From the IMG/VR virus record IMGVR_UViG_3300042256_000025: a stretch of 64,000 nucleotides of DNA. One strand, written 5' to 3'. Below the pieces are notes generated by a model. That model saw only the letters and a list, made by a program, of their open reading frames with translations, had not been told where the DNA came from and made no database searches. Positions 43,279 through 58,429 of this stretch are shown piece by piece (position 1 is the stretch's first letter; the number at the start of each line of letters is the position of its first letter). The translations under genes were made by a program, and so were the position numbers. The stretch is from a virus (lineage: Duplodnaviria; Caudoviricetes).

Positions 43279-43866
43279 TTAATGGAGGTTAGGATCGTTT
43301 ATCTTAGCACCGGGAAAGGCTACAATCTTACCAGAGGAGGTTTTAGGGACATCAGTATCGACTGTACCGGTTACAATACCATTATCACGCTCTAACCAGG
43401 CTTGGTGAACGTCGCGACGATGTATACCCTCTTCATCTACAGCAATGAAGAGGCCTGGTCCATATCCCCCTGCGATAGTTATGGGGTGTGCAGGGTGCTC
43501 GGGTACGTAGAGTCCCGTAATGGAGAGTGGGGGAACCCAAATCGTTTCTGGCACACCGTTAAAGGCTATGTCAAACCATAGGCACATTGAGGTACCATCC
43601 CACCCGTAGTTCTTACAGGCACTAGGCGATATATTCAGGGTAATAAGTGCCATTTCACCTGCTATGCGCACAGGGCCTGGCACCTCTATTTGATTCGAGA
43701 ACAATGGCATGACAGATGCTCGGTCATCCTCTACTGACTCTACATATCCAACGCATAGTTCCATGTGGACATTACCATGCTCACACAGGAAGTTATACGC
43801 GGACTCAAATCGATCGACCGCATCATTCACAGCGTATTCGTACCATTCTACTTCCATCGTCGACAT
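43279..43866 (-). CDS. sspB: SspB-like ClpXP adaptor (stringent starvation protein B family)
   Basis: ITLNISPSAC...FDIAFNGVPETIWVP..SITGLY.PE aligns by eye with the SspB core. Confidence 0.75.
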   Translation of the reverse strand: MSTMEVEWYEYAVNDAVDRFESAYNFLCEHGNVHMELCVGYVESVEDDRASVMPLFSNQIEVPGPVRIAGEMALITLNISPSACKNYGWDGTSMCLWFDIAFNGVPETIWVPPLSITGLYVPEHPAHPITIAGGYGPGLFIAVDEEGIHRRDVHQAWLERDNGIVTGTVDTDVPKTSSGKIVAFPGAKINDPNLH

Positions 43867-53766: not shown

Positions 53767-54378
53767 TTATGCAAGCTCAAGGTGGTCTAACAGCGCCCGT
53801 GTAAAGTAGGCGCGTTCCAGTGGATCTGGAAGGTGTACTTCGATAGCATGTACATTGAAATCGCTAAAGGGAACTGGATGGGTGCCCACGGTTTGCATCA
53901 GGTCATCCACGTTCTCAAACAACTCTACTAACGTACCGTTATTGTCAACGTAATGGGTACAGTCATCCGCCGTAATCGTTAGGGAGGAGGCCGGTTCCAA
54001 TGGCTTACGTTTACTGGCATCTACCCATATTTCAAAGTCATGAGCTTTATTAGCCTTAGAGGCGTTCAGCTCATCTATGTTTCGAAGACCACAGTAAATA
54101 TCGTGCTCTTCGAAAATCTCTCTGGAGACACGGTCTAGGTGCTCCCCATTGTACTCGACGATCAGGTCAAACCACTCCTTACGGTGGTTACCTCGATCCG
54201 CGTAGCATTCCTCTACAGTGGTATATCCATAGAGGGGGGCAAGTCTGTCAAAGATAAACCGCCGACATACAAATAAGGAGGAGGACTCGTATTGCAGTCC
54301 GTAGACTACGGTGAGGTACAGGGAGACGGTGTCCTTCCCATGCCGCGCATTACCGCACACCATCCATTTCAATGACAT
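53767..54378 (-). CDS. Deoxynucleoside monophosphate kinase (P-loop)
   Basis: GNARHGKDTV Walker A, GLRN..E and DNNGT motifs; TGATG coupling with clpP. Confidence 0.75.
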   Translation of the reverse strand: MSLKWMVCGNARHGKDTVSLYLTVVYGLQYESSSLFVCRRFIFDRLAPLYGYTTVEECYADRGNHRKEWFDLIVEYNGEHLDRVSREIFEEHDIYCGLRNIDELNASKANKAHDFEIWVDASKRKPLEPASSLTITADDCTHYVDNNGTLVELFENVDDLMQTVGTHPVPFSDFNVHAIEVHLPDPLERAYFTRALLDHLELA

Positions 54379-54887
54379 CAATAATCCTCAAGCTGATAAT
54401 TATGCTGCACCACCTCATCAATCAGTCCTAACGATAGTGCCTCTTCCGCAGTTAGGTAATGATCAGTCTCACAGTAGGCTGCAATTTCAGACTCACTGCG
54501 ATTGCATCGATCGGCGATGTGCTTGGATAAGGTATCCTTAATATAGTTCATGTACTCCAGGCGAGGCGCCATTATAGCGCTGGTACCTCTGGGCTGATGT
54601 ATCATGATCTCAGTATTCACGGTGGCGTATCGCTTACCCGGTTGACCTGAACACAGTAACAGTGCACCCGCTGAAGCGGCTAGACCGATTGAAAGAGTAT
54701 AGACTGGGGACTCGATCGCCTCCATTGTATCGACAATGGAACGTGCCACTGCAACATCGCCACCCGGACTATTAATCAACATCACAATAGGGGCGACTAC
54801 AGTGGACTCTAGTTCCCGCAAAGCTTCTAAAATCTTACGGCCCATTTTACGCTCTATTACGCCTTCGACTACAACGACTCTAGCCAT
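54378..54887 (-). CDS. clpP: ClpP-family serine protease with intact catalytic triad
   Basis: INSPGGDV, GLAASAG (Ser), MIHQP (His), TDHYLTAEEA..LGLID (Asp); GGAGG SD before ATG 54887. Confidence 0.9.
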   Translation of the reverse strand: MARVVVVEGVIERKMGRKILEALRELESTVVAPIVMLINSPGGDVAVARSIVDTMEAIESPVYTLSIGLAASAGALLLCSGQPGKRYATVNTEIMIHQPRGTSAIMAPRLEYMNYIKDTLSKHIADRCNRSESEIAAYCETDHYLTAEEALSLGLIDEVVQHNYQLEDY

Positions 54888-55368
54888 GAACGTACCCTCC
54901 GAACATACCCAACTCAATCGCCTGCTGTGCGGTCATGTATTCATGGCGATCACAGCGTGCGCGAATGTCAGTTGCCTCTAGACGAGTCACAGCGGCTATG
55001 ATGGCGGTAATGCGCTCCTCTACACGAATAACCTGTTCGCCGGTGGCTGTAATGTCGGTGGCTGTGCCAGCCGCATATTGGGTCTGGCGTACAAAGTGTA
55101 CAATAGTGGAAGGCATGCAGCGACGCTTTTCGACGGGCAGTGCCGCCAATACCACTGCAAAGTGTACCGGCATATCGTAGAGTACCTCGACCTGCATATC
55201 CAGCTTACCTGCAAACAGATCGATGGTGTCATGAATACCTAGTAGCTCAGAGTCCCCTAGAAACACTGTATCAAATTGCAGTGTCAGAGGAATCTCTTTA
55301 TTCTTCTCTAGGTGGGCCAGTAACTCTAGGTATAGTTGGCCTACCGACTTAACCAGTATAACTTTCAC
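54880..55368 (-). CDS. ClpP-like pseudoprotease (ClpR-like; triad lost)
   Basis: KRRCMPST, GTATDI and CDRHEYMTAQQAIELG retain the ClpP pattern; Ser, His and Asp positions are substituted. Confidence 0.7.
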   Translation of the reverse strand: MKVILVKSVGQLYLELLAHLEKNKEIPLTLQFDTVFLGDSELLGIHDTIDLFAGKLDMQVEVLYDMPVHFAVVLAALPVEKRRCMPSTIVHFVRQTQYAAGTATDITATGEQVIRVEERITAIIAAVTRLEATDIRARCDRHEYMTAQQAIELGMFGGYVHG

Positions 55369-55432
55369 AGGGTGCTCCTTATTTTAAAGGTCGTATCAAT
55401 AGGATTTGCCAACCCTACCAGACAAAAAAAAA

Positions 55433-55456
55433 ATAAGGAGGGGTGAACCTCCTTAT
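55433..55456 (-). terminator. Terminator after the orphan helicase end
   Basis: ATAAGGAGG/CCTCCTTAT stem with an A-run at about 55424-55433. Confidence 0.7.
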
Positions 55457-55618
55457 CTAAACGACAACGTTTGTTGGCATGTCACCAATGGAGGCACACT
55501 TACCGGAAAACTGTTCTCGCTTACGCGCATCATACTCTCGGTGCTGCTGGATATCCAGACAAGTTAACCAATAGTAGACGGGCGCAATATGGGGATATTT
55601 CTTTATAGGTCTTAGACG
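55457..55618 (-). pseudogene. Orphan duplicate of the SF2 helicase's last 53 codons plus stop
   Basis: 52/53 aa identical to 56456-56617; 19 nt differences, 16 codons changed synonymously. Confidence 0.9.
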
Positions 55619-55628
55619 GTAAGGAGGG

Positions 55629-56447
55629 CTATTTAGATCTGCACCTGTATAATGAGGTATCCCTCTTAACTTTTTCATCACTAGGGAGGGGCAGTCTAGG
55701 GTCAAATAACCATTTACCGTTAACAACGCCATTATATTCATTATCAATCGCCTTTCTGGCTAAATACTTGCTACAGCCACTATTTAACACCGCCGCTGCG
55801 ATTGTCTGATAAATAGTTTTGGTGCCAGTCGCAACATCCACTACGCCGATAGATCTATTTTTAGTTAACACGCCATATGTAACGTTTGGCCAGGGTTCTG
55901 ATGGGTTAGCGTCCCTAACAAGATATCTACCGTCCACACACTTTAAGGTGGTCCCAATAGCTGCCTTTATCCTGCCCCTCTTGATAGATAGTGTCCTTTC
56001 CGCATCGACGATTGTGTCAAACGCATGTACGGTACCATCTAGTAGGTCTTTAACTTCTACAGGTCTAAGTGTTCTATGTGTATACCCTAGGTCTGTGATT
56101 GAATGGCGTACATTCGCGCTGTGCGACACCCACTCTAGGTTGCAATATGAGTTGTTTTGTTTATCGCCATCCTTATGGTTGACTTCAGCTGACTCAAATT
56201 TACCATTAGGGTTAAACACGTCCATTATAATGTGATGTACTAGTACCGTACGGTCTTTCTTTCTAACCGCATCGTAGGTTTTAAACCCTAAATACCCCGT
56301 GTTAAACGGTGTACCTCGAGTGATTTTACCTAATTGATATTTAGCTAGTTTTACAAGCCTACCGTCAAGAGAACCCGCTACCTCGGGAAACCTCTCAGAT
56401 AGAAAAAAGCCAGGATATGGACTCTCTCTAGGTACGTAGTTGACCAT
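55629..56447 (-). CDS. Free-standing HNH homing endonuclease
   Basis: LVHHII and VNHKDGDKQNNSYCNLEWVSHSANVRHS, then HTH repeats; AGGAGG SD overlaps the helicase stop. Confidence 0.9.
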   Translation of the reverse strand: MVNYVPRESPYPGFFLSERFPEVAGSLDGRLVKLAKYQLGKITRGTPFNTGYLGFKTYDAVRKKDRTVLVHHIIMDVFNPNGKFESAEVNHKDGDKQNNSYCNLEWVSHSANVRHSITDLGYTHRTLRPVEVKDLLDGTVHAFDTIVDAERTLSIKRGRIKAAIGTTLKCVDGRYLVRDANPSEPWPNVTYGVLTKNRSIGVVDVATGTKTIYQTIAAAVLNSGCSKYLARKAIDNEYNGVVNGKWLFDPRLPLPSDEKVKRDTSLYRCRSK

Positions 56448-56455
56448 AGAACCTC

Positions 56456-58429
56456 CTATACAACTACATTTGTCGGCATGTCCCCAATAGAGGCACATTT
56501 ACCGGAAAACTGTTCTCGCTTACGTACATCATACTCTCGGTGCTGTTGGATGTCCAGACAGGTTAACCAGTAGTAGACGGGCGCAATATGTGGGTATTTC
56601 TTTATGGGGCGTAGACGCCCTAATAATTGAAGGTTACGCTGCACCGAGCCAATGGCCACGGTACTGATACAGGCCCTTAGGTTAGGAATATCCTTACCGG
56701 TACCGGCTGAGGTTGGTGTACTGACTATAATGTCGTTTGTGTACAATACTTCTGGAGCATAGGTCGCCGTATAGGCTGAGGTTTTAAACTGTGGATAGAG
56801 TTTACTCAGTCTATTAGCCAGTCGCTCACACATCTCAGTGGTTGCACAGAAAATCAGTAACTTCTGCTCATCCTGGTAGTCTGAGACGAATGCCTGCTCT
56901 GCTAGACTTTCTATGAACTCATAGTAGCGCGTCTCCGCTGTACGATTCGCCATTAGCCACTGCTCATAGGTAACATGACTGTATCCCTTAGTGCCAGTAC
57001 ATTTCACCTTATCCGGATGTTCGAGTCGATAGGTTACAGATATGCACTTTGCGTGCTCATTCTGACTTACGTCTTTAAAGCGGTCCTCCATAGGAAATAT
57101 TTTAAGGTATTGGTTGTTGATCTTCTCATCCTCCGACACCAGTGTCGCAGATAGGTAGATGGCCCTACGTACATGCGTGAAGGTGGTGGCGGTTACGAGT
57201 GCATGGATATTCTCATGTGACTCATCCACGATCCGCATACCCACCCCTAACGTAGGGAATAACTCATAGGGTGTCACACCCTCTATTGTGTACCCCTCTG
57301 TAAGGTAGTCCTTGAGAAAGGCCCGGATAGTAGCAATGGAGATAAAAATGAGCTTATACTCATTCTGTCCGGCTAATGATAACTTAACCAGATTCACCAA
57401 ATGCTCACGCCCCTGTATCACACAGATATCCTTAGCGTGATCAATATCCAGTACCCACTTCGTGGAGTCTATCCACGTTTTAAAATGACCCGAGGCCATA
57501 ACAAATGCCGTGCGTACTTTATAGTGCGCCGTTGTCATTAGTCCACAGGCGGTGTTGTGTGTCACGATGAAGTCATCCGTGACGTAGAGGTGGGATGGGT
57601 GTGATACCTCTATACACTGGACCTCATCCGCCCCTACATACTGAACGTCGATAACCCTAGACATTTCCAAATAGTCACTATCTGGAACATGTATGGGCAA
57701 ATACTGCTCACGACCGTTCTCCACCCGATCCTTGATGATTGCTGTTGTTAGCACCTCACCCGTTAACCCTTTCTCCATGGTATACCAGAGATGTTCAGCG
57801 TCAGCGGTTGACTGTCGTCCATCCTCTAGGGTGATGCAGTATACTGGTCGTACGCCCTGTGGATAGACACCCACAACCACACCTTCACCACCATCGGGTC
57901 CGCTAATGGGGTCCCCTACACTAAGGTCTCCCATTTTGACCCAGCCATGGGGTGTTAACACCTGTGAGGAAAGCGGCTGTGCCTTCCCAAAGCCAGTAGG
58001 AAGGTTTAGTACACGGTTAATGGCCTTACCTTCCTTCATGAAGGCCATGGCCAGTTCCTGTTCCTCATTGCGAGGCCCTACTCCCTTCTGCAACGCTATC
58101 TCGATGGGTGCTCCTTCAATGGGCTCGTGGTACGTGTATTGAAAGTCACTACTAGTGTACCCTAGTACCCTTAGATACTCCTCAACCTTTGTAAACTCCG
58201 CTTTCAGAAATCCAAACTCTTTACGGTCGTGCGTAGCCGTTGCAAAAACGGCCTTGGTTTTCTTAACCCGACGCTTAAGCTTTGGAATCCAGACGGTTTC
58301 AAAGATCGCCAGTCGCTCACAGTACTTAAGGATGGCTTCTCGTTCATTCGGGTAATGCACCTGAATACGTACGCCATGACTGTAGACGTCTACTTTAAAC
58401 TTAACCATTCTACCTCCCATGACAGCCAT
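56456..58429 (-). CDS. SF2 DExH helicase (phiKZ gp75-like) containing a mini-intein
   Basis: PTGFGK|T, DESH, LSAT, AGTG.DIPNL and QLLGRLR motifs. Confidence 0.9.
   Translation of the reverse strand: MAVMGGRMVKFKVDVYSHGVRIQVHYPNEREAILKYCERLAIFETVWIPKLKRRVKKTKAVFATATHDRKEFGFLKAEFTKVEEYLRVLGYTSSDFQYTYHEPIEGAPIEIALQKGVGPRNEEQELAMAFMKEGKAINRVLNLPTGFGKAQPLSSQVLTPHGWVKMGDLSVGDPISGPDGGEGVVVGVYPQGVRPVYCITLEDGRQSTADAEHLWYTMEKGLTGEVLTTAIIKDRVENGREQYLPIHVPDSDYLEMSRVIDVQYVGADEVQCIEVSHPSHLYVTDDFIVTHNTACGLMTTAHYKVRTAFVMASGHFKTWIDSTKWVLDIDHAKDICVIQGREHLVNLVKLSLAGQNEYKLIFISIATIRAFLKDYLTEGYTIEGVTPYELFPTLGVGMRIVDESHENIHALVTATTFTHVRRAIYLSATLVSEDEKINNQYLKIFPMEDRFKDVSQNEHAKCISVTYRLEHPDKVKCTGTKGYSHVTYEQWLMANRTAETRYYEFIESLAEQAFVSDYQDEQKLLIFCATTEMCERLANRLSKLYPQFKTSAYTATYAPEVLYTNDIIVSTPTSAGTGKDIPNLRACISTVAIGSVQRNLQLLGRLRPIKKYPHIAPVYYWLTCLDIQQHREYDVRKREQFSGKCASIGDMPTNVVV
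57554..57982 (-). mobile_element. Class-3 mini-intein (143 aa, no endonuclease) in the helicase Walker A
   Basis: Starts AQPLSSQVLTPHGW; HLW, VQCIEV and FIVTHN|T give the W-C-T signature. Confidence 0.9.

Follow-up and report, generated by a model that had tools for sequence, protein, structure and literature searches.

Two overlapping genes of a phiKZ-like virus, one encoding a ClpP protease with its catalytic triad and the other a ClpP-like protein devoid of one, raise the question of what such a pair makes in the infected cell. The genes lie in a stretch of 64,000 nucleotides (hereafter the window), which is part of a 195.5-kb IMG/VR virus record with an estimated completeness of 71%. Several genes of this record match families of split multisubunit RNA polymerases, as is typical of phages related to phiKZ. 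An earlier note on the same DNA had proposed that the two genes encode an active and a dead ClpP subunit with complementary deletions, which would form an obligate heteromer and possibly a protease independent of any ATPase.

Gene layout and coupling

The locus comprises the following features, listed in the direction of transcription:

55431..55458, minus strand: terminator-like hairpin, an 11-bp stem followed by a T run, 3′ of the helicase/HNH region
54880..55368, minus strand: P0002, dead ClpP-fold subunit of 162 aa; GTG start at 55368 with the Shine-Dalgarno-like sequence AAGGAG upstream
54880..54887, minus strand: 8-nt overlap ATGGCTAG, with the P0001 start inside the P0002 stop region
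54378..54887, minus strand: P0001, active, N-terminally truncated ClpP of 169 aa; ATG start at 54887 with the Shine-Dalgarno-like sequence GGAGGG upstream
54674-54672, 54599-54597 and 54464-54462, minus strand: codons for S72, H97 and D142, the P0001 triad as placed by alignment
53767..54378, minus strand: gene for a P-loop protein, its start coupled to the P0001 stop (TGATG, with a shared A)

The 8-nt overlap between the two ClpP-fold genes is as first described: both are on the minus strand and share ATGGCTAG at 54887-54880. These eight bases are unchanged in two metagenomic relatives of the locus, L005 and L006, despite near-saturated synonymous sites, and are predicted to couple translation of P0002 and P0001. 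The pair appears to be the start of a new transcription unit just downstream of the hairpin. The latter is judged on its position only, because a pattern scan for such elements found 1 against 1.3 expected.

The P-loop protein shows weak similarity to deoxynucleoside monophosphate kinases. Its gene is linked to the pair only in the window, L005 and L006; in contrast to the window, the loci of the Vibrio phages described below have no coupled P-loop gene downstream of the pair. Being linked in one sub-clade only, this gene probably falls outside the conserved module.

The helicase gene upstream of the pair (window 56456-58429, minus strand) encodes 657 aa in the window and in L005, and 514 aa in L006 (L006:1394-2938). 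The additional 143 residues end in HN, with Thr as the next residue, and resemble an intein. In the window the helicase is followed by an HNH gene (55629-56498), which L005 and L006 lack. The window and the genome record differ at 17 positions within a 108-base stretch at the 3′ end of the helicase gene (56525-56632) and are identical elsewhere.

The active subunit

P0001 matches the Pfam CLP_protease family (PF00574) with an E-value of 1.8e-41 and 142.5 bits (cut-off 20.2) over model positions 16-181, and its alignment with B. subtilis ClpP, which runs from residue 27 on, shows about 37% identity. The protein is a member of the ClpP family (PF00574, MEROPS S14), and its Ser-His-Asp triad is complete, as had been claimed for the downstream gene: S72, H97 and D142 all fall in invariant columns of an alignment with 28 cellular homologues. 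It nonetheless stays below the NCBIfam cut-offs for canonical ClpP (111.4 versus 308.6 bits for TIGR00493; 132.8 versus 249 for NF001368), its range over the NCBIfam ClpP models being 111-133 bits as against cut-offs of 228-309.

Three residues separate the catalytic His of P0001 from the conserved handle Gly, as opposed to seven or more in cellular ClpPs and in P0002. Two independent alignments place the gap of four residues in the Gly-rich loop right after HQP: the cellular arrangement HQP-LGGA-R-GTAKDI reads HQP-R-GTSAIM in P0001, with LGGA missing and GTSAIM aligned to the G.ATDI segment. Since the gap falls in the Gly-rich loop, G.ATDI is mutated and not deleted. The earlier description of a short handle lacking G.ATDI is thus correct as to length, the handle being four residues shorter, and wrong as to the motif, which has diverged to GTSAIM. 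In the AlphaFold2 models, helix E of P0001 begins four alignment positions later than that of P0002; the P0001 model (single chain) is of low confidence at residues 102-105, within the shortened handle, the domain by which the two heptameric rings of a canonical ClpP tetradecamer are joined.

The active subunit also departs from cellular ClpPs at two positions, Y62 and F82, which from the ADEP and ClpX literature we take to belong to the hydrophobic pocket where the IGF/LGF loops of ClpX/ClpA dock (the H-site). P0001 has L and A in their place, the Vibrio phage vB_pir03 has V and R, and Yong XC31 has P and K; the other pocket positions are kept.

The dead subunit

The match of P0002 to Pfam CLP_protease (E 1.9e-11, 44.6 bits, cut-off 20.2) is confined to the C-terminal half, and its scores against the NCBIfam canonical ClpP models are 30-44 bits. 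An AlphaFold2 model of P0002, made from 14 family members, reaches a pLDDT of 90.8, superposes over its full length on many ClpP structures with TM-scores of 0.84-0.85, and presents the same order of secondary structure as the P0001 model. The cellular ClpPs so superposed are about 17-22% identical to P0002. Absence of a ClpP fold in the upstream protein, which the earlier note had named as a reason to give up its interpretation, is therefore not what the model indicates.

No Ser, His or Asp is found in the catalytic columns of P0002, the exact residues varying with the alignment, and the protein retains GTATDI together with a full-length Gly-rich loop. The upstream copy has thus lost the triad and kept the handle, just as proposed; lacking the triad, it is a pseudo-protease and a member of the ClpP fold only. 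P0002 has no internal deletion matching the one in P0001, and the notion of complementary deletions is for this reason too strong.

An exhaustive profile-free search recovered about 14 metagenomic relatives of P0002, 24-35% identical and nearly all of 162 aa. In a phylogenetic tree these dead copies (about 14) form a single, strongly supported clade, which the tree does not place next to the active clade. Pattern scans of IMG/VR with P0002, P0005, P0007 and P0010 gave no matches, nor did tblastn of P0002, P0008 and P0013 against GenBank phages, nor PADLOC for P0001 or P0002. A metagenomic protein of 1146 aa (P0012), in which Pfam detects no domain, matches dead-copy residues 76-120 in eight separate stretches and is probably repetitive.

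Both subunits begin at the first beta strand

In its normal state ClpP is closed by its N-terminal loops, and nothing but an ATPase or antibiotics such as ADEPs will open it. These axial loops, a mark of canonical ATP-dependent ClpP, are found in neither P0001 nor P0002. The two proteins start 0-2 residues before beta strand 1, where cellular ClpPs carry 22-36 more residues, and the stop-to-stop frames upstream of P0001 and P0002 are too short to accommodate the missing 22-36. Starting as they do at strand 1, both are without the axial-loop and helix-A segment, and this part of the original proposal stands. The segment in question forms the axial gate and the contact with the ATPase (reviewed, along with the roles of the H-site and the handle, in PMC9035409).

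Selection and conservation across phages

The order helicase, dead copy, ClpP, P-loop gene is kept in both L005 (93% identity) and L006 (85%). Relative to these sequences, the dead copy has a dN/dS of 0.06-0.10 and the active copy one of 0.03-0.05, and synonymous sites are near saturation in the comparison with L006. A value of 0.06-0.10 indicates that the dead copy is maintained by selection and is no decaying gene.

Judged by RNA polymerase beta, the nearest GenBank phages are Vibrio jumbo phages, at 35-37% identity. Orthologues of the pair were located in these genomes through RNA polymerase synteny and then with the dead-copy family HMM, which matches the upstream proteins with E-values of 1e-14, 1e-11 and 5e-15. 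In vB_pir03, Yong XC31 and BONAISHI the order is RNAP beta, beta prime, helicase, dead copy, truncated ClpP. In all three the pair occupies the same position, after the RNA polymerase genes. The orthologous modules are:

vB_pir03 (MT811961; PMC7765460), 99715-100239 and 100236-730: same synteny and truncations
Yong XC31, QAX96030/QAX96029: same synteny and truncations
BONAISHI (MH595538; PMC6207643), ORF86/ORF87: same synteny, N-terminal truncation and four-residue deletion in the active subunit

In these phages the upstream protein measures 174-190 aa and the downstream ClpP 163-170 aa, and the two genes overlap by 4 nt, overlap by 1 nt or lie 2 nt apart. The Vibrio proteins are 27-29% (active) and 16-20% (dead) identical to those of the window, the overall identity between lineages being 27-37% for the active and 16-22% for the dead copies. 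Homologues of the pir03 upstream gene are also present in C-ZP2022 and sm033.

In the window clade and the three Vibrio lineages alike, every active partner has the SHD triad, a loop of exactly three residues and a strand 1 preceded by 2-5 residues; in every dead partner the triad is incomplete and the loop counts seven residues. In a set of 80 further viral ClpPs taken from IMG/VR, the loop is 6-10 residues long, there is room for an N-terminus in 80 of 80, and the short loop occurs in 0 of 80. As both truncations are present in all four lineages and the short loop in none of the other viral proteins, they are old, shared derived features of the module. Strong purifying selection, combined with recurrence in deeply diverged phages, argues that the arrangement is not due to chance.

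A complementarity between the subunits involving the oligomerization-sensor Arg and an acidic handle residue, both lost in P0001 and kept in P0002, was considered and rejected because the active subunits of pir03, XC31 and BONAISHI keep these residues.

A proposed two-subunit peptidase

Since cultured Vibrio jumbo phages carry the same pair in the same position, we are probably dealing with a two-part phage protease. The interpretation that we favour, with confidence about evenly divided for and against, is that P0001 and P0002 would be the two subunits of a phage-specific ClpP-family peptidase, co-assembling, probably gate-less, and distinct from the capsid protease. P0001 would be the catalytic subunit, a ClpP core that has kept the triad, has neither axial loop nor helix A, and is four residues short in the handle; P0002 would be a ClpR-like dead paralogue contributing a ClpP fold and a full-length handle. 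Translational coupling would ensure that both are made together and in similar amounts. Most likely they would then assemble, as mixed heptamers or as one ring of each type, to enclose a proteolytic chamber. The complex would probably degrade peptides or unfolded proteins without a Clp ATPase, or by way of another partner, and its site of action would be the infected cell and not the maturing capsid.

The basis for co-assembly, put forward earlier as an obligate heteromer, is the conserved coupling and synteny. Adjacency, tight junctions and purifying selection on a full ClpP fold make a structural partner of P0001 the most likely role for the dead copy. Against co-assembly, a search for a fused dead-plus-active protein found none, which is a weak negative, and the tree does not show the two copies as sister paralogues. 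The intact handle of the dead subunit might compensate for the short handle of P0001. E. coli ClpP tolerates handle deletions of a few residues, however, so the short handle need not impose dependence on a partner. The more specific version, in which a minimal, gate-less ClpP/ClpR-type peptidase conserved in one clade of phiKZ-like jumbo phages would need the dead subunit's handle to build its chamber and would degrade host or phage proteins with no AAA+ unfoldase, as a naturally ATPase-independent ClpP, is a tentative one that we find rather unlikely.

With no N-terminal gate in either protein and pocket residues lost from the active one, the enzyme is probably independent of Clp ATPases. Searches of the record (about 71% complete) detected no AAA_2 (ClpX/ClpA/ClpB-type) or ClpS family and only sub-threshold matches to general AAA; given this degree of completeness, an unfoldase could sit in the missing part, and the enzyme might instead use ClpX/ClpA of the host. 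AAA_2 was likewise not found in the three complete Vibrio phage genomes (vB_pir03, Yong XC31 and BONAISHI). The ATPase-independent mode suggested at the outset is thus plausible on three counts (no gate, replaced H-site residues, no Clp ATPase family found), and we infer it, along with the nature of the substrates, from these features.

A gene 11 kb from the pair encodes an SspB-like (ClpX adaptor) candidate of 195 aa (window 43279-43866, minus strand). Its signals are weak though concordant: Pfam SspB is matched at E 0.036 when the genome is searched, several PDB chains of SspB align across the conserved core at E 0.2-0.3, and the top ESM Atlas matches (0.89) are clusters that contain SspB. 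Neither vB_pir03 nor Yong XC31 nor BONAISHI showed a counterpart. The protein was rejected as a part of the module, the signals being weak and the gene not conserved with the pair.

Alternative explanations

The two proteins could act separately, P0001 as a homo-oligomeric peptidase of its own and P0002 as a non-catalytic binder (a decoy or inhibitor of host ClpX/ClpA, of adaptors or of substrates) that is co-expressed for the sake of timing. The faster evolution of the dead copies (16-22% identity between lineages versus 27-37%) would fit an arms race with the host, and the tree gives no sister relation between the dead and active families. Yet adjacency and coupling are strict in every lineage examined, and P0002 retains the whole ClpP fold, including the handle strand and helix, while lacking those N-terminal and H-site features that would serve to bind ClpX/ClpA; we regard separate action as unlikely. 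That the P0002 gene is a functionless, decaying duplicate, as loss of all three catalytic residues might suggest, is wholly implausible. The evidence on selection and conservation contradicts this idea: synonymous sites are saturated while dN/dS stays at 0.06-0.10, the frame is intact, length is conserved over about 14 deeply diverged members, and the fold is predicted with confidence.

Alternatively, one or both phage subunits might enter host ClpP rings, poisoning or retargeting ClpXP/ClpAP, for instance against defences triggered by degradation. Bacteria are well known to form mixed ClpP assemblies, the fold matches of P0002 include ClpP1/ClpP2 structures, and a gate-less subunit in a host ring would upset coupling to the ATPase. 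Jumbo-phage ClpPs, which are patchily distributed, have been suggested to be host-directed (Iyer et al. 2021, PMC7824862), and the possible SspB-like protein would be in keeping with this; the match of the latter is weak, though, and pair-bearing Vibrio phages have no detected counterpart. Low identity to cellular ClpPs (about 17-22% for P0002, about 37% for P0001) makes co-assembly with host subunits doubtful, and P0001 is far under the NCBIfam ClpP cut-offs (111-133 versus 228-309 bits). Insertion into host rings is accordingly judged improbable. Equally to be weighed is a role of the pair as an accessory protease of the capsid or inner body, packaged or active in head assembly beside the gp175-type protease, as the PHROG matches of P0001, labelled head maturation protease, might indicate. 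Against this, the record encodes a separate gp175-like enzyme outside the window (G000:C1:146592-147272, a 256-aa frame 37% identical to phiKZ gp175, E 2e-36), which was matched with phiKZ gp175 as the query, Pfam Peptidase_S77 giving no match in the genome. P0001 reaches 68.9 bits versus a cut-off of 120 with NCBIfam NF045542 (ClpP-related head proteases), and it matches cellular ClpPs best. Finally, in no lineage does the pair lie in a head block; helicase and RNA polymerase genes are found beside it throughout. An accessory role in the capsid thus seems quite improbable, and the earlier opinion that the pair is not the head maturation protease is upheld by the separate gp175-like enzyme and the low P0001 score. 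The two-subunit phage peptidase remains the preferred interpretation.

Significance

The genes studied here are already in GenBank, with one record naming both; their nature and pairing were previously unanalysed. The 2018 table for BONAISHI lists ORF86 as "Clp protease subunit" and ORF87 as a proteolytic subunit, with no comment (PMC6207643), and that for pir03 gives ClpP only (PMC7765460); the upstream gene is annotated "hypothetical protein" in the pir03 and XC31 records. We found no paper discussing such a dead partner, those on BONAISHI and pir03 being silent on the loss of the triad and on the pairing.

What emerges is a gate-less active ClpP that is always beside a dead partner, an association kept over deep divergence within one phage lineage, and this points to an unstudied proteolytic function in the phiKZ-like jumbo phage clade. 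Should the pair form a working complex, it would represent a natural deregulated ClpP. It would also offer a compact system for sorting out the contributions of the handle and of pseudo-subunits to assembly and activation. The presence of the module in cultured phages (vB_pir03, BONAISHI, Yong XC31) makes the question directly testable.

Comparison with known systems

The ClpP/ClpR cores of cyanobacteria and plastids resemble the phage pair in combining an active ClpP with an inactive, adjacently encoded paralogue of ClpP fold; the Chlamydomonas Clp core (PDB 7eko) is among the fold matches of the P0002 model. P0002 shows three ClpR-type features: it has the ClpP fold, it has lost the triad, and its gene is coupled to that of an active ClpP. 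The outcome to be expected from this parallel would be a mixed proteolytic core. The cellular ClpP/ClpR proteins keep their N-terminal loops and work with ClpC/ClpX, whereas the phage pair has no loops and no Clp ATPase was found with it. Furthermore, the phage dead copies form a separate, fast-evolving clade in a tree that contained no ClpR sequences.

A second parallel is provided by the ClpP1/ClpP2 hetero-tetradecamers of M. tuberculosis, Listeria and P. aeruginosa, three structures of which (PDB 4u0g, 4ryf and 9ndj) are among the P0002 fold matches. Like the phage pair, these consist of two paralogues often encoded in one operon; each paralogue forms one ring, and the two are mutually dependent for activity. 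The phage pair differs in that both ClpP1 and ClpP2 keep the triad and the N-terminal loops, and that one of their rings docks the ATPase.

Tandems of an inactive and an active ClpP also exist elsewhere. In the large IMG/VR contigs L071, L072, L074 and L081, a triad-less ClpP-like gene (with DSR or DDK in the three catalytic columns) is followed directly by a gene retaining Ser and His, whose third triad position is Glu in L071 and Asp in L081. Phage status of these contigs is based on the IMG/VR classification and one weak terminase match. A gene for a DksA/TraR-type zinc-finger protein lies upstream of the tandem in L071:1872-3408 (359-kb contig) and L081:145-1665 (85-kb contig). L071 and L081 are a second lineage of inactive-plus-active ClpP tandems and differ from the window pair in their full-length N-termini, normal loop length and separate branch in the tree. 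What sets the present pair apart is that it combines the two truncations and always sits next to the helicase gene, within one phiKZ-like clade.
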